A DNA stretch of 64,000 nt from Coriobacteriaceae bacterium (GCA_036718335.1 DAIMBN010000003.1:1862-65861); one strand, 5' to 3'. Shown: positions 2,565 to 61,260, counted from the first letter of the stretch. The notes: a model not told the origin generated them from the sequence alone. Made by a program: numbers and translations.

Positions 2565-3726
2565 CCGTCCGGTTCGAGTCCTATATATTGCTAGAGGGAT
2601 AAGCGAAATAGGCAATTGGTGTGCGAATATTGCTTTGCCAATGCTGATTTACGAGGTAACTCACGATGTTTCTGCAACTGCTTTGATGGTCTGCTGCAGA
2701 TTTGCCCCCTCTCTGTTTTCAGTTGCGCTCGCGCAGCTGCCTCAGAAGATGGGTATCGGGACACTGCAGGCCATGAGATTGGCAGACTTAATTCGCGCGG
2801 GATTATTCGTTTGCTATATTTTTGTTGATAGTAAATGGAGTATGTTTGCTATTACGTGCGCGGTATCGCTTTGCCGAACGGTTGAAATGCCCTGCTTTTA
2901 CTCGTTGTTAAGAGCCAATACGAATAGTATCAATCGCGACGTAATTAATAATTCGTTTGGGTTTCTGCAGAATTTGATGATGGTTCTGGGGCCAGTTGCC
3001 GGCGGTTTTGTTGTCGCTCAATTTGGGGCGGAGGCTGTTCTTGCATTAGACGCGCTTTCTTTTGCCGCGTCGTTCTGGTTGCTGCGAGATGTTCCGTCGG
3101 TTATCGAGGTTAATGATAAAGAGGGGATAAGCAAAAATGAAAAAAACAGGACTGCATTTAGTGATCTTAGCGCGAAGCACTTGGCAATTGGTTTCCTATT
3201 AATCGATATTTCTAGTGGCGTGGCATTCGGCTCTCTGAATTCTCTTTTGCCAGCTATTGCGCAATTGCAATTTGACTCGTCATCGATACAATACGGATTC
3301 CTTCAGAGTAGTCTTACAATCGGACTGTTGTTCGGAAATACAATATATGGTCGTTTAATTAGTGGTTCCGATTGCATTAAATCATATTGTTTTGTGACGT
3401 ATCTTGCGCTCGGTGCGTATCTGGCGTTTGGCTATCGCTATGCGTCTGGAATATCGTTTATTTTCCTTTTTATCGTCGGTGCCGGAAACGCCATTCAAGA
3501 TGTGCTTCTCATAACATCGCTGCAGGATTTGGCGAGAGACGAATCTGAATCGATAAGCCTGTTTTCAATTAGGGAGTCTTTGCAATCGGTTGCTGTTGTT
3601 ATTTCAACACTCCTTGTTTCGCTGTTCACGAGCATCGCGATGTTCTCAATTCTCGTTACAGGACTTGGTGTATTTTCAATTATGATGGTAGTTGTGTTTC
3701 AATTGAATTATTTGCGAAAGATGTGA
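2539..3726 (+). CDS. MFS transporter (putative exporter of the island)
   Basis: 395-aa ORF that is hydrophobic throughout with about 12 predicted TM segments. The start is GTG 2539 or ATG 2542. AT-rich codon usage matches the island. Confidence 0.8.
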   Translation: MMFTVLRASRPVRVLYIARGISEIGNWCANIALPMLIYEVTHDVSATALMVCCRFAPSLFSVALAQLPQKMGIGTLQAMRLADLIRAGLFVCYIFVDSKWSMFAITCAVSLCRTVEMPCFYSLLRANTNSINRDVINNSFGFLQNLMMVLGPVAGGFVVAQFGAEAVLALDALSFAASFWLLRDVPSVIEVNDKEGISKNEKNRTAFSDLSAKHLAIGFLLIDISSGVAFGSLNSLLPAIAQLQFDSSSIQYGFLQSSLTIGLLFGNTIYGRLISGSDCIKSYCFVTYLALGAYLAFGYRYASGISFIFLFIVGAGNAIQDVLLITSLQDLARDESESISLFSIRESLQSVAVVISTLLVSLFTSIAMFSILVTGLGVFSIMMVVVFQLNYLRKM

Positions 3727-3733
3727 CGTTGAT

Positions 3734-4105
3734 ATGCCTAAAACGCTTTTAGTATTTCCCCCAGGATGGAGTCCAGTGGGGCCGTATCTTGCCTTGCCTG
3801 TTTTGAAGTCATATCTTCAAGAGGTTGAACAATATAAAGTTGACATCGTTGACTTAAACGTGGAATTTTACGATGACCTCCTATCTTTTAGACATGTCGA
3901 AGAGTGCTGTAAAAGGTATCGGGAATCAAAGGATTCGTTTAGTTCGAATGTTCAATTAACAATCGAGTTGATACAAAAGTCAGCACTTAATGTTGACGAG
4001 GCAAAAGATATTTTCAGATCGAAGAGATACTTTAATCTAAAAGAAAGACAATATGCTGAAAACATTTTTAGAAATGCACTCTATATCATAAATCACGTCT
4101 CATAG
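3734..4105 (+). CDS. N-terminal fragment of a B12-binding-domain radical SAM protein, ended by TAG TGA
   Basis: MPKTLLVFPPGWSPVGPYLALPVLKSYLQEVEQYKVDIVDLN resembles the first beta-alpha unit of the cobalamin-binding domain of class B radical SAM enzymes. It is in the same reading frame as ORF 4169-6055. Confidence 0.6.
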   Translation: MPKTLLVFPPGWSPVGPYLALPVLKSYLQEVEQYKVDIVDLNVEFYDDLLSFRHVEECCKRYRESKDSFSSNVQLTIELIQKSALNVDEAKDIFRSKRYFNLKERQYAENIFRNALYIINHVS

Positions 4106-4168
4106 TGAGTTAAATACACGTTCAACTCCATAGATCTGCCCTATGATTATTATTCGACACCAGAAATA

Positions 4169-6055
4169 ATGAAATCGCTTGCGGATACCTTGCATAATCC
4201 GTTTATTTCCTTCTATGAAACTGCCTTTCTTAAGCGTATTCAGAGGGAAAAAATCGAGTTTATTGGGATTTCGGTGAGCGGCTGTTTCCAATTGATTTCT
4301 GCAGTTACGTTAGCGAAACTGATTAAAGAAGAATGTCCATCTGTTAAACACGTCTCATTGGGCGGCAATTACATTACTCGTTTAGCAGATGACTGCATGA
4401 AAGAATGGCATCCCTTTTTTGAATACACTGATTCGATAATGATGTATGACGGCGAAGAGCCGCTTGCACGTCTTCTTGAGGCTCTTGACTCTGGTGATGA
4501 CAATCTCGACTGTGTTCCAAACCTTTGCCATGCTAAAGGTGGGAAGATATATAAAAACCATCGGATTGAGCAAACATTTATCAACGATACGGTTCCCGAT
4601 TTCGATGGCTTCGCCCTTTCTAAATACTTCATGCCTGAGTTAATATTGCCGGTTTATTCCTCTAGGCAGTGTTTTAATCATTGCGCCTTCTGCACCATTC
4701 CCGGTGCTACCGGTGGTTGTTACCGAAAGATGCCTATATCGAGAGTATTTGAAATAATGTGTCGGTTAAATGAAAAATACGGCACGAGAGTTTTCTCTTT
4801 TGTGGATGAAACATTCGAAGGCAAAAGAATGGAGCAACTCGCGGATGAAATAAACGCATCGGGAAAAACGTTTTTCTGGCATGGAGAAACGAGGTTCTCT
4901 CCAACCCTAAGTACAGACGTTTTCAACAAGATATACCAAAGTGGATGTAGGCAGATTCAGTTTGGCCTCGAGTCATACAACCAAAGAGTTCTTGATCTAA
5001 TGAAGAAGAACACGAGAGTTGATTGGATTGATCGCAATATCCATGATTGTCTCAATGCGGGTATTCCTGTTCATCTATTCTTTATGATTGGCTTTCCGAC
5101 CGAAACTAAAGAAGAGGCTCTGAACACCTTAGCTTATACAGAGAATGTTTTGAATTATTCAAAACAGGTATGTGGTGTTCCATATTCCACGAGAGGATTT
5201 ACGAATTTTGGTCTCGTTATGGGGTCGGATGTTTGGAATCATCCCGATAAGTATGGTGTCTCTGTAATGCCGAAGTCCCAATATGAGGATTTGCGCCTCG
5301 AAGTGGATTATGTTTCAGGCACTGGTTTAACTTTAAATGAAGCAAAATCCTTATCTGATGAGCATCATATTGATTTTTATATGCAAGAGGTCATAAACGG
5401 TAGCGACACAATTGACTTGCCCCAGCGGCTTCATATTTCAGAGGTGACCTGGATCCTAGATTCTATTCACGCTGTCAGGTATAAGGGACATTTGACCAAA
5501 GTAAAGCGACGGCTAACTAGTCTAAATCCAGCTGATCGAATCTGGCTGGATTCCAAGACCTCTGTCGTGCTCGTTGAGCCATTTGCCTACTTCTATAATT
5601 CTGAATACCATCATGTCTATGCTGTTTCCCAGTTGGTATACCTTAAGTTGGCCCGTTTATTGGAGGCCGATTGTAGCATTTCTCTTATCCTTGATCAAGG
5701 CGACCTCGAGCTGACAAGGACGATAGAAGAACTGTTGCATTATGGATTGCTGAATACAAATATCGATGCCGATTATGTAATGCACGATAATGGTTTTCAA
5801 TTGGTTAAAAGTTCGTTTGTGAAAGAAGTCGGACGCTCAAAAGAGGGGTTAAGAGTACTGCTGAGTTGTGCCACCCATAGAATGTGTGCGGTTAATGATT
5901 TTTCGTTCGCTTTGCTTTCGTTGTTTGAAAAGCCGATTACTAAGAACGAGGTGCGCGACATTTTGAAAAAAGAGGGACTATCGGCAAACGAGGAGCAATT
6001 AAACAAGTTGGTTGATAATTGCATGAAAGCAGATATACTACAGTTGATTAGATAG
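4169..6055 (+). CDS. B12-binding-domain radical SAM protein (core plus C-terminal PqqD-like peptide-recognition domains)
   Basis: CxxxCxxC (CFNHCAFC) is encoded at 4670-4693. Upstream, ...IEFIGISVSGCFQLISAVTLAKLIKEECPSVKHVSLGGNYITRL matches the rest of a B12-binding domain. The C-terminal ~170 aa contain two segments with PqqD/RRE-like character (ELTRTIEELLHYGLL; ITKNEVRDILKKEGLSANEEQLNKLVDNCMKADILQLI). No SD precedes ATG 4169. Confidence 0.8.
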   Translation: MKSLADTLHNPFISFYETAFLKRIQREKIEFIGISVSGCFQLISAVTLAKLIKEECPSVKHVSLGGNYITRLADDCMKEWHPFFEYTDSIMMYDGEEPLARLLEALDSGDDNLDCVPNLCHAKGGKIYKNHRIEQTFINDTVPDFDGFALSKYFMPELILPVYSSRQCFNHCAFCTIPGATGGCYRKMPISRVFEIMCRLNEKYGTRVFSFVDETFEGKRMEQLADEINASGKTFFWHGETRFSPTLSTDVFNKIYQSGCRQIQFGLESYNQRVLDLMKKNTRVDWIDRNIHDCLNAGIPVHLFFMIGFPTETKEEALNTLAYTENVLNYSKQVCGVPYSTRGFTNFGLVMGSDVWNHPDKYGVSVMPKSQYEDLRLEVDYVSGTGLTLNEAKSLSDEHHIDFYMQEVINGSDTIDLPQRLHISEVTWILDSIHAVRYKGHLTKVKRRLTSLNPADRIWLDSKTSVVLVEPFAYFYNSEYHHVYAVSQLVYLKLARLLEADCSISLILDQGDLELTRTIEELLHYGLLNTNIDADYVMHDNGFQLVKSSFVKEVGRSKEGLRVLLSCATHRMCAVNDFSFALLSLFEKPITKNEVRDILKKEGLSANEEQLNKLVDNCMKADILQLIR

Positions 6056-13255: not shown

Positions 13256-13278
13256 CGTGGGGCTTAATTACGCTACTG

Positions 13279-13483
13279 GTTGAGCATAAGTCAGCGAAAA
13301 CGCCCCTAGGCGAGCAAGGTGACGTGAAAGAGGAGGGAAGCGTACTTCGGTACGCGACCGACGATTGAACGTCAGATTGCCGCTTAGGGGCGTTTGCAGC
13401 GTCGACCGGTCCGTCGTTCGTCAGAACGACGGAACCAAAGGTGTAGCGTCGACTAGTTACGCGGTTTGGTAAAACCGCGTAAC
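13279..13483 (-). repeat. Family-1 structured intergenic repeat, copy A (minus orientation, directly 3' of dapH)
   Basis: The reverse complement aligns with 35048-35194 and 60921-61079. It shares the blocks GTTACGCGGTTTTACCAAACCGCGTAAC, TCGACGCTGCAAAC, GCAATCTGACGTTCAATCGTCG, CTCTTTCACGTCACCTTGCTCG and GTTTTCGCTGACTTATGCTCAACC. It also carries an extra ~50-nt hairpin insert. Confidence 0.85.
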
Positions 13484-13484
13484 C

Positions 13485-14204
13485 CTACAGCTGGCGCAGG
13501 CCTTCCTCGAGACCGGTCTTGCTGTCGGTCTTCTCGTCACGCATCTTGATGACGCGGGCGGGAACACCGGCCACGACGGCGCCGGCGGGGACGTCCTCGA
13601 CGCATACGGCACCGGCAGCCACGACGGCGCCCTTGCCCACGCGCACGCCCTCCAGGACCACGGCGTTGGCGCCAATCATGACATCATCCTCGATGATGAC
13701 GGGCGTGGCGCTGGCGGGCTCAACGACGCCTGCCAGTACGGCGCCGGCGCCGATGTGGCAGTTCCTGCCCACGGTGGCGCGGCCGCCCAGGACGGCGCCC
13801 ATATCAATCATAGAGCCCTCGCCGATAACGGAGCCGATGTTGATGATAGCGCCCATCATAATGACGGCGCGGTCGCCGATCTCGACGCGGTCGCGAATGA
13901 TCGCACCCGGCTCAATGCGGGCGTTGATGCCCTTAAGGTCTAGCATGGGGACGGCGGAATTGCGGCAGTCATTCTCGACGTCGTAGTAGTCGATGGAGTC
14001 GGCATTGGCATCGAGGATGGCTTTGAGCTCATCCCAGTCGCCAAAGACGGTCTTGCCACGACGACCGCCGTAGACGTGCGCATTGCCCCACTGGACCTTC
14101 ATGCCGGGCTTTTCACGCACGTACAGCTTGACGGGCGTCTTTTTAGGCGCGGTGGCGATGTAGTTGATAATCTCCTGTGCATCCATCTCGGCTGCGCTGC
14201 TCAT
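13485..14204 (-). CDS. dapH: 2,3,4,5-tetrahydropyridine-2,6-dicarboxylate N-acetyltransferase (hexapeptide-repeat, DapH type)
   Basis: 239 aa. The N-terminal domain and the left-handed beta-helix hexapeptide repeats ([38 protein letters not shown]) are typical of DapH. AAAGGAGAG lies upstream of the ATG. Confidence 0.85.
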
Positions 14205-27778: not shown

Positions 27779-29522
27779 GGTGGACCATCCCCTCGGTAAT
27801 GCGAACGATATCGGTGACCTCGCTCACCTGTGCAAAGGCGGGAGAGACGGAGGATGCCAGACGACGAGAAAGCTCTATGACCTGGGGCGGCTCAACGTAG
27901 GCGCGCTGCATGAGCTCGATGTCCGAGAACAGCTCGTGCGTGCGGCCGCGCTCGAGGATGCGGCCGTCGGCCATTACCACAATGCGCTCGGCAAAGTCGG
28001 AGACGACTTCCATGTCGTGGCAGACCATGATTACAGCGCAGCCGCGCTCGGCCATGGTGCGCACCGTTTCCATCACGGTCATGCACTCGCGGTAGTCAAG
28101 GCCGCTCGTGGGCTCGTCGAGCACCACGATTTTGGGCTCTACGACCACGACGGAGGCGAGTGCCACCATCTGGCGCTGACCGCGCGAGAGCGAGAAGGGC
28201 GCCTCGTCGGCCGGCAAGCCAAAGCGGTCGATGACGAGCTGGGCGCGACGCAGCGCCTCGGCGCGGTCGATGCCGGCAAGCTCCAGGCCAAAGGCGACCT
28301 CGTCGAGCACGGTGTCCTTGCAGATCTGGCGGTCGGGGTTTTGGAAGAGGGTTGCGACTTCGCGGGCGATGCGGCTCGTGGGAACGGCTGCGGTATCCAG
28401 TCCCGTGACGCGCACGCTGCCCGAGGCGGGCTTAAGCAGGCCTGTGAGCAGCTTGGTGAGCGTGGTCTTGCCGGCGCCGTTTTGACCGACGATGCCCACG
28501 AGCTCGCCGGGATAGAGGGTCAGGTTGAGGTCGTGGACGGCGGCGCCGCCATTGAGATAGGCAAACTCAACGTGATCGAAGGTGAGCACGGGCTCGGCGT
28601 CCTTGGCGCGCGGGCGCAACGACGGTGCGTGCGGTGAGCCGGCGGGCGCCTGGGCTTCGATAGCCGCGCGTGCGGGGTCGACGATGCCCGAAATCATGCG
28701 CTCGGCCTCATCGACATCCAAGCAGGGGGTACCGCTTACCAGGCCATCGGCCTCGAGGCTATTGAAGATACGCGTGACGCGAGGGCAGTCGACGCCGATG
28801 GCACGAAGCTCGTCGGTATGCGCGAAGACCTCGTGTGGCTCGCCCTGCAGCGCGATTTCGCCATGGTTGAGCACGAGCACGCGGTTGCAGTACTCCGAGA
28901 GCAGGGCGACCTTTTGCTCAACGACGACGATGGTGATTCCAAGTGTGCGGTTTGCCTCGCGCAGCGTCTCGAAGACCAACGTGGAGCTGGCGGGGTCGAG
29001 TGCCGCGGTGGGCTCGTCGAGAACCAAGACGCGCGGGCGCATGGCGAGGATGGCGGCGATGGCTACCTTTTGCTTCTGTCCGCCCGAGAGCGTGGCAATC
29101 TCGCGGTCACGCAGGTCGCTGATGCCGACGGTCTCGAGCGTTTCGCTCAAGCGCTGCTCGATCTTGTCGTGGGGAACGCCAAAGTTCTCGAGGCCAAAGA
29201 GCATCTCGTCCTCGACGATCGAAGCGACCATCTGCGTGTCGATATCCTGTAGCACACTGCCGACGATTTGCGACACGTCGGTCAGCGAGACCTCGCAGGT
29301 GTCGTGGCCGTCAACCATGACGGACCCAAAGAACGTGCCGGTGTAGTGGTGGGGCACGGCACCTGACAGGCAGGCGGCAAGCGTGGACTTGCCGGCGCCC
29401 GAGGGCCCGATGATGCCGATGAAATCTCCCTTGTTCACGCTGAGCGAGATGTGGCTGAGCGCCTGCTCGGTCTGCGTGCCATAGGAGAACGAGACATCGT
29501 CGACGTTGATGATCGTTTCCAT
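27771..29522 (-). CDS. ecfA: ECF transporter ATPase, fused duplicated ABC ATPase (EcfA1-EcfA2)
   Basis: Two Walker A motifs (GPSGAGKST, GQNGAGKTT), two signature motifs (LSGGQKQ, LSRGQRQ) and two Walker B motifs in 583 aa. Confidence 0.9.
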   Translation of the reverse strand: METIINVDDVSFSYGTQTEQALSHISLSVNKGDFIGIIGPSGAGKSTLAACLSGAVPHHYTGTFFGSVMVDGHDTCEVSLTDVSQIVGSVLQDIDTQMVASIVEDEMLFGLENFGVPHDKIEQRLSETLETVGISDLRDREIATLSGGQKQKVAIAAILAMRPRVLVLDEPTAALDPASSTLVFETLREANRTLGITIVVVEQKVALLSEYCNRVLVLNHGEIALQGEPHEVFAHTDELRAIGVDCPRVTRIFNSLEADGLVSGTPCLDVDEAERMISGIVDPARAAIEAQAPAGSPHAPSLRPRAKDAEPVLTFDHVEFAYLNGGAAVHDLNLTLYPGELVGIVGQNGAGKTTLTKLLTGLLKPASGSVRVTGLDTAAVPTSRIAREVATLFQNPDRQICKDTVLDEVAFGLELAGIDRAEALRRAQLVIDRFGLPADEAPFSLSRGQRQMVALASVVVVEPKIVVLDEPTSGLDYRECMTVMETVRTMAERGCAVIMVCHDMEVVSDFAERIVVMADGRILERGRTHELFSDIELMQRAYVEPPQVIELSRRLASSVSPAFAQVSEVTDIVRITEGMVHRG

Positions 29523-29575
29523 GGATACCTTTCATAGTCATTGGGGACGTTCTTTGGTGGTGGGGCAGCGATGAG

Positions 29576-33808: not shown

Positions 33809-33906
33809 ACTTACGTTCCCGTTCTGTGACTAACCGAGTATAGTTGTAAGGCAATGCCGATATCCTACCCGTGTTTTTCGGGCCTAACCTTATTCGATGG
33901 GTTGAT

Positions 33907-35040
33907 ATGTACATTTCCACACATCAGGCTCTACTCGACTTTTGCCAGCGCGCCCGTGAGTTCGACGCGATTGCCGTCGATACCGAGTTTTTGCGCGAGC
34001 GCACGTTCCATCCGCGTCTATGTTTGGTTCAGATTGCCACCCCTGCTGAGAGCGTCGCGGTCGATCCCCTGGTAATCGACGACCTATCGCCGCTGGCCGA
34101 GCTTATGGCCGACGAGAGCGTGACCAAGGTCTTCCACGCGTGCTCGCAGGATATGGAGGTCATGCTCCATACCGTGGGCGTGCTGCCACGACCGATTTTT
34201 GACACGCAGGTGGCCGCCGCCTTTTTGGGCGAGCGCCAGCAGATTTCGTATGGCGCGCTTGTTCAGACGTTCTGCGGTGTATCGCTGCCCAAGACCGAGT
34301 CGCTGACTGACTGGTCGCGCCGCCCGCTGACCGATAAGCAGATTGAGTATGCGATCGACGACGTCAAGTACCTGATCGTCGCCTATACCGAGATGATGAG
34401 CCGTCTGCGCGAGCTGGGCCGTGTGGACTGGGTGCTCGACGAGTTGCGCCCGCTGGCTGACGAGTCGCACTATCGCGCCGATCGCCACGAGGCGTTCCGC
34501 AAGGTCAAACGCATCAATTCGTGTAGCCGTCATCAGTTGGGCATCGCGCGCGAGCTCGCCGCTTGGCGCGAGGATCGCGCCGAGCGCCGTAACATCCCGC
34601 GCAAGTGGGTCATGTCCGACGACACGCTGCTTGCGCTCGTTAAGCGCAATCCCGTGCGCGTTGAGGAGTTCCGTAGCATTCGCGGTACCGATCAGTTGGG
34701 GGAGCGCGACGTGGACGGTGCGCTCATGGCCATCAAGCGCGGCGCGAGCTGCCCGCACGATCGCCTGCCGCTCATGGTGCGCGGGCACCGTCAGATTTCG
34801 CCGGAGTTGGAGAGCGTGACGGACCTGATGTATGCGCTCATTCGCCTAGTTGCCGAGCGCTCGGGCGTGGCGACCTCGGTCATTGCCTCGCGCGATGACC
34901 TGGCCGACTACATTGAGCATCCCGAGCAGAGCCCCCTGCGCGAAGGCTGGCGCTTTGAGCTCGTGGGTTCGCGTCTAGACGATCTGCTTTCCGGCAATAT
35001 GGGGTTGACGGTGAAGGACGGCAAAATCGAGCTCCTGTAG
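33907..35040 (+). CDS. rnd: Ribonuclease D
   Basis: DEDD exonuclease motifs (AVDTEF, HACSQDMEV, YAIDDV) plus an HRDC-like C-terminus. Start ATG 33907. Confidence 0.85.
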   Translation: MYISTHQALLDFCQRAREFDAIAVDTEFLRERTFHPRLCLVQIATPAESVAVDPLVIDDLSPLAELMADESVTKVFHACSQDMEVMLHTVGVLPRPIFDTQVAAAFLGERQQISYGALVQTFCGVSLPKTESLTDWSRRPLTDKQIEYAIDDVKYLIVAYTEMMSRLRELGRVDWVLDELRPLADESHYRADRHEAFRKVKRINSCSRHQLGIARELAAWREDRAERRNIPRKWVMSDDTLLALVKRNPVRVEEFRSIRGTDQLGERDVDGALMAIKRGASCPHDRLPLMVRGHRQISPELESVTDLMYALIRLVAERSGVATSVIASRDDLADYIEHPEQSPLREGWRFELVGSRLDDLLSGNMGLTVKDGKIELL

Positions 35041-35047
35041 GTATATA

Positions 35048-35194
35048 GTTACGCGGTTTTACCAAACCGCGTAACAGCTCGACGCTGCAAACGGCCGAGA
35101 GCGGCAATCTGACGTTCAATCGTCGCTCGCGTACCAAAGTACGCGTCGCTTCTCTTTCACGTCACCTTGCTCGCTCTCGGCCGTTTTCGCTGAC
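35048..35194 (+). repeat. Family-1 structured intergenic repeat, copy B (directly 3' of rnd)
   Basis: GTTACGCGGTTTTACCAAACCGCGTAAC hairpin, then a long imperfect hairpin: GCAAACGGCCGAGAGCG-GCAATCTGACGTTCAATCGTCG-[CGCGTAC CAAA GTACGCG]-CTCTTTCACGTCACCTTGCTCG-CTCTCGGCCGTTTTCGC. Confidence 0.85.
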
Positions 35195-35278
35195 ATTGCC
35201 AAAACATCGATGTTGATTTGCTGGTCAGTCGAATGGGTAGAATGCCTCTAACGTGTAACTCGATTCGGAGGAATTCGC

Positions 35279-35983
35279 ATGCCCTATTACTATGGTTACG
35301 GCTTTGGCATCGACCCGCTGTACCTGCTGGTTGTTCTTGTTTGTACGGTGCTTGGCCTTGCTGCGCAGAGCTATATCAACTCGACGTACAAGACCTGGTC
35401 CAAGGTTCGTTCGGACGGCGACACGGGTGCCACGGTCGCTCGCCGCATGCTCGATGCCAACGGTTGTAGCGCCGTGGGTATCAAGGGTGTCGCTGGCGAG
35501 CTCACCGACCATTACAACCCGCAGGACAACAACCTGTATCTGTCGGATGCCAACCGTTCGGGCGGTTCGGTCGCAAGCGTTGCCGTCGCCTGCCACGAGG
35601 CGGGCCATGCCGCCCAGCGTCAAAGCGGCTATGCCATGATGAAAGTGCGTACCGCCCTCGTGCCGGTCGTCAACTTTACCCAGAACACCTGGACCATCGT
35701 GTTACTCTTGGGCCTGTTTATGAACATTGCCGGGCTCACGACCCTCGCGTTGATCTTCTTTTCGTTTAGTGTGCTGTTCCAACTCGTTACGTTGCCTGTC
35801 GAGATTGACGCCAGCCGACGTGCTGTGGCGTACATCGAGCAGTCGGGCATGAGCTCCAAGCAGGTCAACGGCGCCAAGAAGGTACTGACGGCAGCCGCGC
35901 TTACCTATGTGGCCGCAGCGCTCACTTCGATTATTCAGCTGCTCTACCTTATGGCTCGCTACAACAGAAACTCCAACCGATAA
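35279..35983 (+). CDS. Putative neutral zinc metallopeptidase (Zn_peptidase_2 family membrane protein)
   Basis: The MPYYYGYGFGIDPLYLLV start, the HEAGHA zinc motif and the C-terminal TM helices are typical of the YpjG-like family. Confidence 0.8.
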   Translation: MPYYYGYGFGIDPLYLLVVLVCTVLGLAAQSYINSTYKTWSKVRSDGDTGATVARRMLDANGCSAVGIKGVAGELTDHYNPQDNNLYLSDANRSGGSVASVAVACHEAGHAAQRQSGYAMMKVRTALVPVVNFTQNTWTIVLLLGLFMNIAGLTTLALIFFSFSVLFQLVTLPVEIDASRRAVAYIEQSGMSSKQVNGAKKVLTAAALTYVAAALTSIIQLLYLMARYNRNSNR

Positions 35984-53697: not shown

Positions 53698-54962
53698 GGC
53701 CCGAAAGAAAGGTAGGAGGCCATGACGAAAGGTCTGCACGTGCCTTCCGAGATCGGCAAGCTCAGGAAGGTCTGCCTGCACCGTCCCGGCGACGAGCTCC
53801 TCAACCTGCCGCCCGACGAGCTCGAGCGACTCCTGTTCGACGACGTCCCGTTCCTGGAGGTCGCGCAGCAGGAGCACGACACCTTCGCCCAGATCCTGAG
53901 GGACCAGGGCGTGGAGGTCCTCTATCTCGAGAACCTCGTCGCCGAGGTGTTCGACCAGGTCCCCGGCGCCCGCGCCGAGTTCACCGACCAGTACATCGCC
54001 GAGGCCGGCATCCGCGGCCAGCACATGCCGCAGATCGTCCGCGAGAAGCTGGACTCCATCGAGGACAACCTCGAGTTCGTCAAGAAGACCATGGCCGGCA
54101 TGACCAAGTCCGAGATCGACATGCCCCTCACGGCCTCCACGACCCTCGACTCCCTGGTCAACTCCGAGTCCGAGTCCGACCTGATCATCGACCCGATGCC
54201 CAACCTCTACTTCACCCGCGACCCGTTCGCGGTCGTCGGCGAGGGCGTCAACCTCAACCGCATGTACTCGGTCACCCGCAACCGCGAGACCCTGTACGGC
54301 AAGTACGTCTTCAAGTACCACCCCGACTACAAGGACGTCTCGCTGTACTTCCGCCGCGACTGCCAGTTCCACACCGAGGGCGGCGACGTGCTGAACATCA
54401 ACGAGAAGACCCTCGCCGTCGGCATCTCCCAGCGCACCCAGGCCGCCGCGATCGACGTCATGGCCCAGAACATCTTCTGGAACTCCGACTCCAAGGTCGA
54501 GCGCATCCTGGCCTTCGACATCCCGGTCTCGCGCGCCTTCATGCACCTCGACACGGTCTTCACCCAGATCGACGTCGATAAGTTCACGATCCACCCCGCC
54601 ATCATGGGCACCCTGCGCGTCTACGAGCTGACCGCCGGCAAGAACCCGGGCGACGTGAACATCCGCCTGATCGAGGACACCCTCGAGCACGTCCTGGAGG
54701 ACGCCACCGGCGTCGACCAGGTCAAGCTGATCCCCTGCGGCGGCGGCGACCCGATCGCGGCCTCCCGCGAGCAGTGGAACGACGGCTCCAACACCCTGTG
54801 CGTCGAGCCCGGCAAGATCTGCGTCTACGCCCGCAACACCGTCACCAACGACGTGCTGTACAAGGAGGGCCTGGACCTTCTCGTCGTGCCCTCCGCCGAG
54901 CTCTCCCGCGGCCGCGGCGGCCCGCGCTGCATGAGCATGCCCTTCTGGCGCGAGGACCTCTA
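53698..54962 (+). repeat. 1265-bp direct repeat, copy 1 (SD plus the whole arcA CDS)
   Basis: Appears nucleotide-identical to 56787-58051 (offset 3089 bp). Identity starts at GGCCCGAAAGAAAGGTAGGAGGCC and ends inside the stop codon (TAG here, TAA in copy 2). Confidence 0.9.
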
Positions 54963-54963
54963 G
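53722..54963 (+). CDS. arcA: Arginine deiminase (copy 1)
   Basis: 413 aa. The SEIGKLRKVCLHRPG start and the catalytic-Cys region GGPRCMSMP. Confidence 0.9.
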   Translation: MTKGLHVPSEIGKLRKVCLHRPGDELLNLPPDELERLLFDDVPFLEVAQQEHDTFAQILRDQGVEVLYLENLVAEVFDQVPGARAEFTDQYIAEAGIRGQHMPQIVREKLDSIEDNLEFVKKTMAGMTKSEIDMPLTASTTLDSLVNSESESDLIIDPMPNLYFTRDPFAVVGEGVNLNRMYSVTRNRETLYGKYVFKYHPDYKDVSLYFRRDCQFHTEGGDVLNINEKTLAVGISQRTQAAAIDVMAQNIFWNSDSKVERILAFDIPVSRAFMHLDTVFTQIDVDKFTIHPAIMGTLRVYELTAGKNPGDVNIRLIEDTLEHVLEDATGVDQVKLIPCGGGDPIAASREQWNDGSNTLCVEPGKICVYARNTVTNDVLYKEGLDLLVVPSAELSRGRGGPRCMSMPFWREDL

Positions 54964-56786: not shown

Positions 56787-58051
56787 GGCCCGAAAGAAAG
56801 GTAGGAGGCCATGACGAAAGGTCTGCACGTGCCTTCCGAGATCGGCAAGCTCAGGAAGGTCTGCCTGCACCGTCCCGGCGACGAGCTCCTCAACCTGCCG
56901 CCCGACGAGCTCGAGCGACTCCTGTTCGACGACGTCCCGTTCCTGGAGGTCGCGCAGCAGGAGCACGACACCTTCGCCCAGATCCTGAGGGACCAGGGCG
57001 TGGAGGTCCTCTATCTCGAGAACCTCGTCGCCGAGGTGTTCGACCAGGTCCCCGGCGCCCGCGCCGAGTTCACCGACCAGTACATCGCCGAGGCCGGCAT
57101 CCGCGGCCAGCACATGCCGCAGATCGTCCGCGAGAAGCTGGACTCCATCGAGGACAACCTCGAGTTCGTCAAGAAGACCATGGCCGGCATGACCAAGTCC
57201 GAGATCGACATGCCCCTCACGGCCTCCACGACCCTCGACTCCCTGGTCAACTCCGAGTCCGAGTCCGACCTGATCATCGACCCGATGCCCAACCTCTACT
57301 TCACCCGCGACCCGTTCGCGGTCGTCGGCGAGGGCGTCAACCTCAACCGCATGTACTCGGTCACCCGCAACCGCGAGACCCTGTACGGCAAGTACGTCTT
57401 CAAGTACCACCCCGACTACAAGGACGTCTCGCTGTACTTCCGCCGCGACTGCCAGTTCCACACCGAGGGCGGCGACGTGCTGAACATCAACGAGAAGACC
57501 CTCGCCGTCGGCATCTCCCAGCGCACCCAGGCCGCCGCGATCGACGTCATGGCCCAGAACATCTTCTGGAACTCCGACTCCAAGGTCGAGCGCATCCTGG
57601 CCTTCGACATCCCGGTCTCGCGCGCCTTCATGCACCTCGACACGGTCTTCACCCAGATCGACGTCGATAAGTTCACGATCCACCCCGCCATCATGGGCAC
57701 CCTGCGCGTCTACGAGCTGACCGCCGGCAAGAACCCGGGCGACGTGAACATCCGCCTGATCGAGGACACCCTCGAGCACGTCCTGGAGGACGCCACCGGC
57801 GTCGACCAGGTCAAGCTGATCCCCTGCGGCGGCGGCGACCCGATCGCGGCCTCCCGCGAGCAGTGGAACGACGGCTCCAACACCCTGTGCGTCGAGCCCG
57901 GCAAGATCTGCGTCTACGCCCGCAACACCGTCACCAACGACGTGCTGTACAAGGAGGGCCTGGACCTTCTCGTCGTGCCCTCCGCCGAGCTCTCCCGCGG
58001 CCGCGGCGGCCCGCGCTGCATGAGCATGCCCTTCTGGCGCGAGGACCTCTA
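56787..58051 (+). repeat. 1265-bp direct repeat, copy 2
   Basis: See 53698-54962. Confidence 0.9.
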
Positions 58052-58052
58052 A
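56811..58052 (+). CDS. arcA: Arginine deiminase (copy 2, identical protein)
   Basis: The 413-aa translation is identical to copy 1. Ornithine carbamoyltransferase follows. Confidence 0.9.
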   Translation: MTKGLHVPSEIGKLRKVCLHRPGDELLNLPPDELERLLFDDVPFLEVAQQEHDTFAQILRDQGVEVLYLENLVAEVFDQVPGARAEFTDQYIAEAGIRGQHMPQIVREKLDSIEDNLEFVKKTMAGMTKSEIDMPLTASTTLDSLVNSESESDLIIDPMPNLYFTRDPFAVVGEGVNLNRMYSVTRNRETLYGKYVFKYHPDYKDVSLYFRRDCQFHTEGGDVLNINEKTLAVGISQRTQAAAIDVMAQNIFWNSDSKVERILAFDIPVSRAFMHLDTVFTQIDVDKFTIHPAIMGTLRVYELTAGKNPGDVNIRLIEDTLEHVLEDATGVDQVKLIPCGGGDPIAASREQWNDGSNTLCVEPGKICVYARNTVTNDVLYKEGLDLLVVPSAELSRGRGGPRCMSMPFWREDL

Positions 58053-59153: not shown

Positions 59154-59300
59154 GAGCATCTAGCATCTCGCTCGGGGTGTCTTGCTGCACACCCCGAGCG
59201 GCTTTGTCTGGTAAATATCTCGCACCAGGCGGCAGGCACGGCACGGAAGAGCCGCTTCGGGCGAGATCAGTAAATGATTTATGAAGGGGGGATGAGAACT

Positions 59301-60779
59301 ATGACTGAGACCGCTAAGAAAAAGCGCGGTATGCCTTCATCGTTCACCATTCTTCTTGCTCTGCTGGCAATTGTCGCAGTGATTACCGTTATCGTCTCCG
59401 GCACGTCCGGTGGCGCGGTTACTGCCGCCCGTCTGAGCGATTTCTGCACCGCCCCGATTAAGGGCTTCGCTGACGCTCTGCCCGTCTGCCTCTTCGTTAT
59501 GATCCTGGGCGGCTTCCTCGGCATGATGACCGAGACCGGCGCCCTGGACAACGGCATCGCCGTCCTGGTGCAGAAGCTTAAGGGTAATGAGATCATGCTC
59601 ATTCCCGTGCTGATGCTCATCTTCTCCCTCGGTGGTACCACCTATGGTATGTGCGAGGAGACCGTTCCCTTCTACGCCTTGCTTGCCGCTACCATGATGG
59701 CCGCTGGCTTCGACCCGATGGTCGGTGCCGCCACCGTCCTGCTCGGCGCTGGCTGCGGCTGCCTGGGCTCCACGGTTAACCCGTTCGCCGTCGGCGCTGC
59801 CGTCGACGCTCTGACCGGCGTTGGCATTGAGGTCAACCAGTCCATCATCATCGGCCTCGGTGCCGTCCTGTGGATTGTTACCACTGCTATGTCCATCTTC
59901 TTCGTCATGAGCTATGCCAAGAAGGTCAAGGCTGACAAGGGTTCCACCATCCTGTCGATGCAGGAGCTCAAGGACGCCGAAGAGGCTCACGGCAAGGCTG
60001 CTTCCGAGGTTCACAATGAGGTCAAGCTCACCGGTCGTCAGAAGGGTGTTCTGATCGCCTTTGCCTTCACCTTCGTCGTCATGATCGTCGGCTTCATCCC
60101 GCTGGCCGACCTCAACGAGGGCGTCGCCAACTTCTTTGACGCTGGCGCTGTCTACGATGCCGACGGTAACGCCGTCGTCCAGGGCTGGTCTGCCCTGATC
60201 ACCGGCCTGCCCATTGGCCAGTGGTACTTCGACGAGGCTTCCACCTGGTTCTTCCTCATGGCTGTCCTGATCGGTATCATCGGTGGCCTGTCCGAGAAGC
60301 AGATCGTCAACACCTTCATCACCGGCGCTGCCGACATGATGTCCGTTGTTCTCGTCATCGCCCTCGCTCGTGGTATCTCCGTCCTCATGGCTAACACCGG
60401 CCTCGACGTCTACGTCCTCGACGCTGCCGCCAATGCCCTGGCTGGCCTGTCCGGTGTGATCTTCGCTCCCATGAGCTTCCTGGTCTACTTCGGCCTGTCC
60501 TTCCTGATCCCCTCGACCTCCGGTATGGCCACCGTCTCCATGCCCATCATGGGACCGCTGGCTGTTAAGCTCGGCTTCTCGCCCGAGGTCATGGTCATGA
60601 TCTTCTCCGCCGCCATCGGTGTCGTGAACCTGTTCACCCCGACCTCCGGCGCCATCATGGGCGGTCTCGCCCTGGCCAAGATCGAGTGGACGACCTGGCT
60701 CAAGTTTGCCCTTAAGCTCATCGTCGCGCTCTCCGTCGTCTGCGCCATCATCCTGACCGTCGCCTGCGTGTTGCTCTAA
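59301..60779 (+). CDS. YfcC/DcuC-type anaerobic carrier family membrane protein (putative arginine/ornithine exchanger of the ADI cluster)
   Basis: About 490 aa and highly hydrophobic. Its position after arcA-arcB is typical for YfcC-type ArcD substitutes. The start is ATG 59301, 59292 or 59274. Confidence 0.75.
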   Translation: MTETAKKKRGMPSSFTILLALLAIVAVITVIVSGTSGGAVTAARLSDFCTAPIKGFADALPVCLFVMILGGFLGMMTETGALDNGIAVLVQKLKGNEIMLIPVLMLIFSLGGTTYGMCEETVPFYALLAATMMAAGFDPMVGAATVLLGAGCGCLGSTVNPFAVGAAVDALTGVGIEVNQSIIIGLGAVLWIVTTAMSIFFVMSYAKKVKADKGSTILSMQELKDAEEAHGKAASEVHNEVKLTGRQKGVLIAFAFTFVVMIVGFIPLADLNEGVANFFDAGAVYDADGNAVVQGWSALITGLPIGQWYFDEASTWFFLMAVLIGIIGGLSEKQIVNTFITGAADMMSVVLVIALARGISVLMANTGLDVYVLDAAANALAGLSGVIFAPMSFLVYFGLSFLIPSTSGMATVSMPIMGPLAVKLGFSPEVMVMIFSAAIGVVNLFTPTSGAIMGGLALAKIEWTTWLKFALKLIVALSVVCAIILTVACVLL

Positions 60780-60920: not shown

Positions 60921-61079
60921 GTTCCGGCGTTTTACCAAACGCCGTAACCGCTCGACGCTGCAAGCCCGCCAGAGCGGCAATCTGACGTTCAATCGTCGGG
61001 CATGGCCAAAAGGCCTATGCCCTCCTCTTTCACGTCACCTTGCTCGCTCTGGCGGGCTTTCGCTGGCTTATGCTCAACC
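60921..61079 (+). repeat. Family-1 structured intergenic repeat, copy C
   Basis: Same conserved blocks as copies A and B. The variable stems are CCGCCAGAG / CTCTGGCGG, and the apical hairpin is GGGCATGGCC AAA AGGCCTATGCCC. Confidence 0.85.
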
Positions 61080-61260
61080 TGCGGCGCTGCCATCGTTGGT
61101 GCTGAGCGACTTGTTCCCCGCCTCAAATTAGCCATCCTGGGTCCCCGGTGGTTGCGGTGGGCGTGTTTGGTTGGTGCCTGTTGATGGTTTGGGTATCGGG
61201 GAGGGCGGGCTCCGTTATAATCGCCTAGAACATTAAATGGAAACGGGACGGGAGCCATAT

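Follow-up and report, generated by a model that had tools for sequence, protein, structure and literature searches.

The stretch of Coriobacteriaceae DNA analysed here, 64,000 nucleotides long and called the window below, carries on its plus strand an rnd gene for RNase D (ORF 33871-35040; Pfam DNA_pol_A_exo1 and HRDC), which ends in a TAG stop codon at 35038-35040. Seven nucleotides past this stop begins a structured repeat, copy B, all parts of which lie on the plus strand. Its 5' module (35048-35075) is a perfect 12-bp hairpin, GTTACGCGGTTT-TACC-AAACCGCGTAAC, seen both in the fold and in covariation across the family. A single-stranded 5' block, TCGACGCTGCAA (35079-35090), comes next; it is near-invariant in the 90 distinct cores that were collected and holds the first of two CGCTG motifs. 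The largest part is a long irregular hairpin (35089-35186), recovered by RNAalifold, pair counts and single-sequence folding. From its base upwards it consists of a basal stem (35089-35100 with 35175-35186), a GGCAA/TTGCT helix with a conserved G.U pair (35103-35107 with 35167-35171), a 2x2 loop TC/CC, a TGACGT/ACGTCA helix (35110-35115 with 35159-35164), a 2x2 loop TC/TC, a 5x5 pyrimidine loop and an apical stem (35130-35134 with 35139-35143) closed by the loop CAAA. The second CGCTG (35188-35192) forms the 3' edge of the conserved core, with a jump in diversity directly after it, and leads into a loosely conserved tail, ACATTGCCAAAACATCGATGTTGAT (35193-35217). Comparison of alleles at the rnd site identifies this tail as part of the inserted unit: it is found in the full and relic alleles and is missing from the empty ones.

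A preliminary description of this DNA had listed three copies of the repeat, and their coordinates and sequences proved to be as described. Two 22-mers, GCAATCTGACGTTCAATCGTCG and CTCTTTCACGTCACCTTGCTCG, occur three times each in the window (0 expected), with a spacing of 48 nt in every copy, and a covariance model built from the 90 distinct cores (R1, run with filters off) finds copies A, B and C and nothing else. Copy A (13262-13483, minus strand; 142.7 bits with R1) follows dapH (Pfam DapH_N/Hexapep), whose stop codon lies at 13485-13487 on the minus strand. Its first hairpin, a (13456-13483), begins 1 nt after that stop, and the remaining parts are hairpin b (13409-13435), the 5' block (13394-13405) within a core at 13292-13405, and a tail reaching down to about 13262. 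Copy C (60921-61092, plus strand; 142.8 bits) follows a gene for a DcuC-type carrier (59274-60779; assigned, like RNase D and DapH, via Pfam) and comprises hairpin a with one C.T mismatch (60921-60948), the core (60952-61065) and the tail (61066-61092). It starts 141 nt past the carrier stop codon and beyond a terminator-like hairpin. Each copy is therefore 3' of a gene and co-oriented with it, at 7 nt (B), 1 nt (A) and 141 nt (C), in agreement with what had been claimed.

The common architecture ascribed to the three copies stands in that they align along the whole unit, with the qualification that copy A is longer, having the extra small hairpin at 13409-13435 and, alongside it, a second, imperfect TCGACGCT linker. 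Several details needed amendment. The apical hairpins had been called completely different in each copy, yet A and B have the stem GCGTAC in common. The conserved tail does not extend to copy B, which lacks the CTTATGCTCAACC tail and has a diverged one in its place. Basal stem pairing is generally kept, with one A.C mismatch in A, and the two strands described as strictly conserved are invariant within this subfamily but covary in diverged members.

ORFs of 100 aa or more do not extend across the element. An open frame that reads through the repeat does exist, but its frame relative to the stop differs by site, so that it would give no consistent product; a small reverse-strand ORF behind GAGGAGG was likewise set aside as a candidate, having in the main type no start codon at a workable distance. 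A gathering scan of the whole window with Rfam 15 returned a lysine riboswitch only and no family for the repeat, and scanning 34950-35300 at E <= 10 gave only two microRNA chance matches (16-19 bits). The riboswitch aptamer (RF00168; 17349-17517, minus strand, 79.7 bits, full length) lies upstream of a minus-strand gene. Elsewhere in the window, the plus-strand ORFs 53722-54963 and 56811-58052 have the same length (413 aa) and a third-position GC of 0.98 each, far above that of other genes; they may represent a duplicated, highly expressed gene.

Collinsella is a common genus of the human gut. A pattern scan (TGACGTTCAATCG-N15-45-TTTCACGTCA) in one genome per species yielded at least 120 loci, which group into about 16 distinct genomic sites; among the matches listed, the only taxa named in the titles are Collinsella or Coriobacteriaceae, and some titles name neither. 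Searching with R1 added about 18 diverged copies at further sites. A 900-kb replicon of C. aerofaciens has 13 places matched by blastn which, together with the 3 copies in the 64-kb window, suggests tens of copies per genome. Carriage by phages or plasmids was considered and dropped: no copies were found in phage records or viral contigs, and the sole match labelled as a plasmid is this same 900-kb replicon. Neither in Rfam nor in the literature searched did we find the repeat described. It is a previously uncatalogued family of hairpin-forming repeats, about 150-220 bases long, scattered through Collinsella genomes.

The unit is modular. Its order is 0-3 perfect 12-bp hairpins, the ~100-nt irregular hairpin, CGCTG and a tail of about 30 nt. 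Each small hairpin is followed by nnnYCGACGCTG and is of type a (GTTACGCGGTTT-TACC-AAACCGCGTAAC) or type b (GTTCCGCCGTTC-TAAC-GAACGGCGGAC). Copy A contains a and b, copies B and C contain a only, and some sites have no small hairpin; the arrays seen at individual sites are a, b, a+b and b+a. The tail has two diverged forms and can be aligned over about 30 nt between copies at different sites. Other interspersed repeats adjoin copies to form composite intergenic mosaics (for example in loci L004, L012, L026, L037 and L083, and at about 29515-29540 in the window); the neighbouring families include TAGTCATTGGGGACGTTCTTAAATGACTAGTC palindromes, GGCACTTGGGGACGTTCCTTTTGTGCCGGCA, GGTGCAAAGGGGTCAGGTT... 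and AAGTTGCGGTGGAATAGTTCC...GGAACTATTCCACCGCAACTT.

The helices of the repeat are kept by compensatory changes. Across 89 distinct cores, 98.2% of paired cells can pair, versus 88.9% in shuffles, and double changes occur at 14 of the 32 pairs. The covariation score is 0.245, compared to 0.080 for shuffled alignments (0 of 500 shuffles reach 0.245) and 0.01-0.03 for slid controls. Once diverged copies are added, double changes are found at 24 of the 32 pairs, in an alignment that is fitted to the model and hence somewhat biased toward structure. In diverged members the TGACGT/ACGTCA helix becomes TGCCTT/AAGGCA, TGCCGT/ACGGCA or TTGGCG/CGCCAA, and the 5x5 loop turns into a helix in some subfamilies. 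The small 5' hairpin shows compensatory changes of its own, at positions 4/25, 7/22 and 8/21. Kept in most subfamilies are the 2x2 pyrimidine loops TC/CC and TC/TC, the G.U pair with a bulged C, the 5' block YCGACGCTGC and the 3' CGCTG. The preliminary view of a structured, multi-copy element with compensated helices thus holds when the covariance model is taken to related genomes.

As a single sequence, copy B folds at -78.1 kcal/mol on the plus strand (z = -8.65). The two strands are about equal in this respect (plus -78, minus -88 kcal/mol), and wobble events (17 G.U versus 10 A.C) favour the sense strand weakly; with such similar energies and this ratio, an assignment of the strand from wobble pairs was abandoned as not decisive. 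A pseudoknot between CGACG of the 5' block and a CGUCG loop was also rejected, since several subfamilies combine an altered loop with an unchanged block, and in one the loop occurs with no block at all. Types A, B and C are unlike at many stem positions but identical in the two 22-mers and the 5' block, so that constraint is uneven within one element. This argument is independent of population history. Conserved unpaired bases combined with covarying helices had been taken as the hallmark of a selected RNA or single-stranded DNA structure; both are observed, and they accord with RNA function and with recognition of folded DNA by a mobilising enzyme alike.

Given that shadow ORFs abound in a high-GC genome, a naive ORF orientation test was dropped in favour of a codon-position GC test. 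By this test, an ORF that is co-oriented and has a coding-like GC pattern ends just upstream of 115 of 128 copies. At the level of distinct sites, about 22 of 24 are 3' of a gene and co-oriented with it, which bears out the placement reported for the window copies, and about 20 of 24 start within 10 nt of the stop codon, mostly at -1 to +2. Where copies in opposite orientation occur inside single 8-kb loci, each is behind its own gene, showing that orientation tracks the gene, or transcription, and not the replication arm. The left flanks are variable (TAG, TAA, TAGG, TAATA and others), with TAR alone in common. The missing TGA stops were discarded as a clue to the target, because Collinsella hardly uses TGA anyway: coding-like ORFs end in TAA, TAG and TGA 271, 243 and 28 times in the fetched loci L001-L120, and 19, 19 and 4 times in the window.

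At sites 2, 4 and 7 the element is followed by canonical terminators, which places it inside the presumed 3' UTR there. Together with the sense placement just after the stop, this points to transcription of the element as the start of the 3' UTR. It also speaks against another role for the repeat itself, either as an intrinsic terminator or as a gene for a trans-acting small RNA whose seed would be an anti-Shine-Dalgarno CCUCCU. Such a role is suggested by a GC-rich basal stem that is followed by TTTT in most copies and by CCCTCCTCTTTC, which the main type has in its partly unpaired 3' strand. However, the T run is not conserved, being TTTT, TTT, GCT, CTC or TCT by variant, and the terminator scan is empty at copy B. 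The CCTCC motif is missing from B (CTTCTCTTTC) and from several subfamilies, and a promoter-like site was not found. Both the terminator and the seed were rejected on these grounds, and we regard this explanation as highly improbable.

The repeat is gained and lost at individual sites. Using the RNase D protein, we fetched 80 metagenome loci with 99-100% identity, 77 of which could be classified. Copy B is full in 13 of these contigs, whose RNase D is at least 99% identical, and reduced to a relic in 5; the other 59 are empty. The relics arose by internal deletions that took the 3' arms of both hairpins. The inserted unit at rnd includes the tail and, within about 10 nt, has the stop codon as its left boundary. 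Most alleles at this site are empty, so copy B is dispensable there. In the empty alleles the stop codon is only about 53 nt from the GGAGG region, and the spacer between copy B and the next gene (35193-35278) contains TTGATT...TAGAAT as well as GGAGG; from this spacing, the tail of copy B may replace the upstream part of the next gene's promoter region.

Two further occupied/empty pairs were found among the genome loci. In one of them the window itself has the empty site, right after the TAA of the upstream gene at about 29530-29575 (minus strand), where only CTCATCGCTGCCC is present and where loci L038, L060, L066 and L098 have a diverged copy without a small hairpin. L072 and L079 were also considered as empty sites, but retain the tail and are relics. 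The empty allele of each of the three pairs has its stop codon at the position found in the occupied allele; the element thus does not supply the stop, and a stop codon is the sole feature that the three empty sites have in common. No target-site duplication is seen in the three occupied/empty comparisons; the direct repeats CGCTG lie inside the unit and do not differ between copies. A TA-duplicating (IS630-type) insertion was rejected, since the TA-G expected after the element is missing at the rnd site. From genome to genome, one site may also differ in the module array or the subfamily that it holds.

These alleles bear on the possibility that the repeat is a cis-regulatory or protein-binding RNA, selected by the host, fixed at particular genes and not mobile. 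Its support comes from conservation within sites. At orthologous sites the core diverges by 0.01-0.04, compared to 0.09-0.28 at third codon positions. In copy B from nine species, variation affects 4 of 94 core columns versus 47 of 100 third positions (Fisher p = 2e-12), a count that leaves out the 23 nt fixed by the search pattern. Diversity climbs sharply at both core edges, the 5' block has a within-site diversity of 0.00-0.04, and the locus-specific types B and C are kept across species. In-situ selection on the core is likely, if unproven. The low diversity of B fits purifying selection, and it also fits a young minority insert allele whose flanks have recombined with the commoner empty alleles. 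A fixed regulatory RNA is hard to reconcile with the 59 of 77 near-identical strains that do without B and the 5 with a hairpin-less relic, with near-identical copies behind functionally unrelated genes, or with sites that hold different variants or module arrays. We therefore consider this reading quite unlikely.

The repeat had also been proposed to be a hairpin-recognised mobile element of the REP/RAYT or IS200/IS605 type. The mobile part of this proposal stands at least in that the family is insertion/deletion-polymorphic (the rnd alleles and the two additional pairs), while no link to REP/RAYT or IS200/IS605 was found. In the main rival to our own interpretation, the repeat would be a purely selfish single-stranded DNA element, its hairpins serving as recognition structures for an HUH/Y1 enzyme (IS200/IS605, RAYT) or another structure-specific recombinase, so that covariation would reflect selection for mobility and any effect on the host message would be incidental. 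Presence/absence polymorphism with relics, insertion without target duplication and a single insertion orientation all agree with this. So do the modules, which all end in CGCTG and stack in either order, as if each inserts 3' of CGCTG, and the focus of sequence conservation on the central mismatched part of the hairpin.

Against this rival, the neighbourhood of the copies showed neither a Y1 nor any other transposase, and a Y1 transposase did not turn up elsewhere in the sequence examined. In about 0.85 Mb of fetched loci no parent insertion sequence with matching ends was found; a self-comparison of the loci for recurrent insertion sequences near copies returned mostly orthologous overlaps. 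A tblastn search with E. coli RayT (E <= 10) gave 0 hits in NZ_OY725717.1, a weak test, given a remote-homology query against a 900-kb, partial genome of C. aerofaciens. The left hairpin sits at the extreme end of the element, 0-2 nt from the junction, with no space for a guide segment, and the common left flank, TAR only, is shorter than known IS200/IS605 targets. Moreover, orientation follows the gene and not the replication arm, and a 3-nt target alone cannot account for a real stop codon at about 20 of 24 sites. A purely selfish element is possible, but on balance we think it rather unlikely.

The repeat is the landing target of an IS110-family insertion sequence. This element of about 1.5 kb (DEDD_Tnp_IS110 and Transposase_20; L045 at about 3139-4672, and also at the contig ends of L040, L070 and L115) has entered three copies of the repeat, each at a different genomic site, precisely at TTTCGCT|GAC and with CT at both junctions. 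The insertion sequence does not occur in the window, and its ends bear no relation to the repeat. In addition, two direct copies bracket a 3.4-kb segment with agmatine deiminase and an amino-acid permease (L023 1741-5325; also L106), and a locus with a single copy (L078, about 1471-1589) lacks the segment, which suggests that it was gained or lost through recombination between copies. Both observations would agree with a role at the DNA level, as cruciform or folded single strand: a recombination site, a landing pad or a nucleoid-protein site like BIME or attC. The anatomy is also broadly like that of attC: the palindrome is imperfect, the tip varies, unpaired bases are conserved and the site comes right after an ORF. 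Against such a role, copies are dispersed in both orientations by housekeeping genes, with no cassette arrays and no integrase nearby, and the GTTAC...GTAAC ends are opposite in arrangement to the attC boxes RYYYAAC...GTTRRRY. Serving as an insertion-sequence target would, furthermore, leave the spread of the family itself unexplained. We judge a DNA-level role to be very unlikely as the explanation for the family.

The best reading is that the repeat belongs to the small structured interspersed repeats of bacteria, of the REP/BIME, bcr1 or MITE sort. In the explanation that we favour, with a probability of roughly 0.5, copy B is a non-autonomous modular hairpin repeat that exerts a stop-proximal RNA effect in the 3' UTR and is spread by an enzyme acting in trans. 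The element would be transcribed together with the upstream gene, as the first part of its 3' UTR. In the basal and apical stems of the ~100-nt hairpin pairing alone would be needed; the central part, with its two 2x2 pyrimidine loops and the G.U pair, is conserved in sequence. As RNA, the stop-proximal and long hairpins may act on the upstream message and, by analogy with E. coli REPs, could block 3'-to-5' decay, hinder the terminating ribosome, or both. Spread would depend on an enzyme supplied in trans, for which no candidate gene was found in the sequence examined, and copies would afterwards be rearranged by recombination and eroded by internal deletions. An RNA effect and mobility as single-stranded DNA are mutually compatible. 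Copy C, 141 nt from the stop codon, counts against the favoured explanation.

To our knowledge, no bacterial repeat has a described rule for targeting stop codons. The placement of the family raises the idea, which we think unlikely, that the element homes to real stop codons or is kept at them, with insertion or retention coupled to the end of translation. Homing might use the non-template strand or the nascent RNA exposed where the ribosome leaves the message; alternatively, a hairpin at -1 to +2 might be a selectable, tunable brake on translation termination. How any repeat finds stop codons is the question that this placement poses, and the natural full, relic and empty alleles at such positions offer a ready test of stop-proximal hairpin tuning outside Proteobacteria. 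The family also accounts for many intergenic stretches of Collinsella that appear as conserved and structured, and should be masked or modelled in searches for non-coding RNAs. Because it marks strain-level insertion/deletion differences at housekeeping genes, it is usable for strain typing. As an IS110 landing site it is a natural target for study alongside such elements, and it may influence how genomes rearrange, since it brackets at least one variable segment of genes.

Comparison with known repeats and structures gives likenesses on several sides. The repeat does not qualify as an Rfam family, a classical MITE (for want of a duplication), a tagged REP, an IS200/IS605 derivative, an attC site or a terminator. 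It resembles MITEs (Correia/nemis, RUP) and BOX of Streptococcus pneumoniae in being modular, with internal or 5' modules that vary in number, in having long imperfect inverted repeats able to form a hairpin, and in its intergenic, polymorphic occurrence. Like a MITE it is small, has no coding capacity and has terminal inverted repeats (imperfect, with hairpin arms of about 35-45 nt), and like mobile repeats in general it is polymorphic for presence and absence (the rnd site and two pairs). Unlike MITEs, it shows no target-site duplication in the three occupied/empty comparisons and lies strictly in sense orientation at stops; no parent insertion sequence was found in the 0.85 Mb or so of fetched loci.

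The palindrome-associated elements of the IS200/IS605 group and attC sites resemble the repeat in their orientation-specific insertion without duplication, structure-dependent function, conserved mismatches and variable tip; attC also lies directly after an ORF. IS200/IS605 elements, however, have a fixed 4-5-nt target and guide segments, whereas the Collinsella repeat has TAR only and, at most sites, a hairpin 0-2 nt from the junction. Similarly, attC belongs to a cassette array with IntI, while the Collinsella repeat is dispersed in both orientations, and neither TnpA(Y1) nor IntI was seen in the sequence examined.

REP and BIME sequences are alike in consisting of small GC-rich palindromic units in mosaics, 3' of genes, that are targeted by IS110-family elements; ISPpu9, of the IS110 family, targets the REPs of Pseudomonas putida (PMC12288879). 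The 28-nt 5' hairpin modules, 0-3 per site and 3' of genes, correspond to the 20-40-nt GC-rich palindromic unit of a REP, but the Collinsella repeat is mainly a ~100-nt irregular hairpin. REPs have a GTAG or CGTC tag adjacent to the stem (PMC3733652), while the Collinsella repeat has no constant tag, with GACG 4-5 nt beyond the stem; Actinobacteria are absent from the 2013 survey of tagged REPs (PMC3733652). REP/BIME sequences come with a RAYT, and none was found with the Collinsella repeat (E. coli RayT tblastn, 900 kb of partial genome). For the REPs of E. coli, many of which lie within 15 nt of a stop, both protection of the 3' end and hindrance of the terminating ribosome are reported, with ribosomes stalling only where no more than 15 nt separate REP and stop (PMC12306157, citing Liang et al. 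2015).

Among known repeats bcr1, from the Bacillus cereus group, comes closest: both repeats are about 150 nt long, confined to one lineage, present in dozens of copies and patchy between close strains. Work on bcr1 by Okstad in 2004 and Klevan in 2007 is summarised in PMC3184786, which describes a group-specific, polymorphic and transcribed repeat of about 155 bp with two stem-loops kept by compensatory changes. The Collinsella repeat is likewise lineage-specific, with two independent stem-loops that carry compensatory changes, no coding capacity and no transposase of its own. Differences lie in the 5-bp direct repeats (TTTAT) at the ends of bcr1, none being seen here, and in transcription, which has been shown for bcr1 and which we infer for the Collinsella repeat from its position. 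Unlike bcr1, the Collinsella repeat has a variable number of 5' hairpin modules and lies in sense orientation at stop codons, and it is this placement that makes it unusual among structured repeats.
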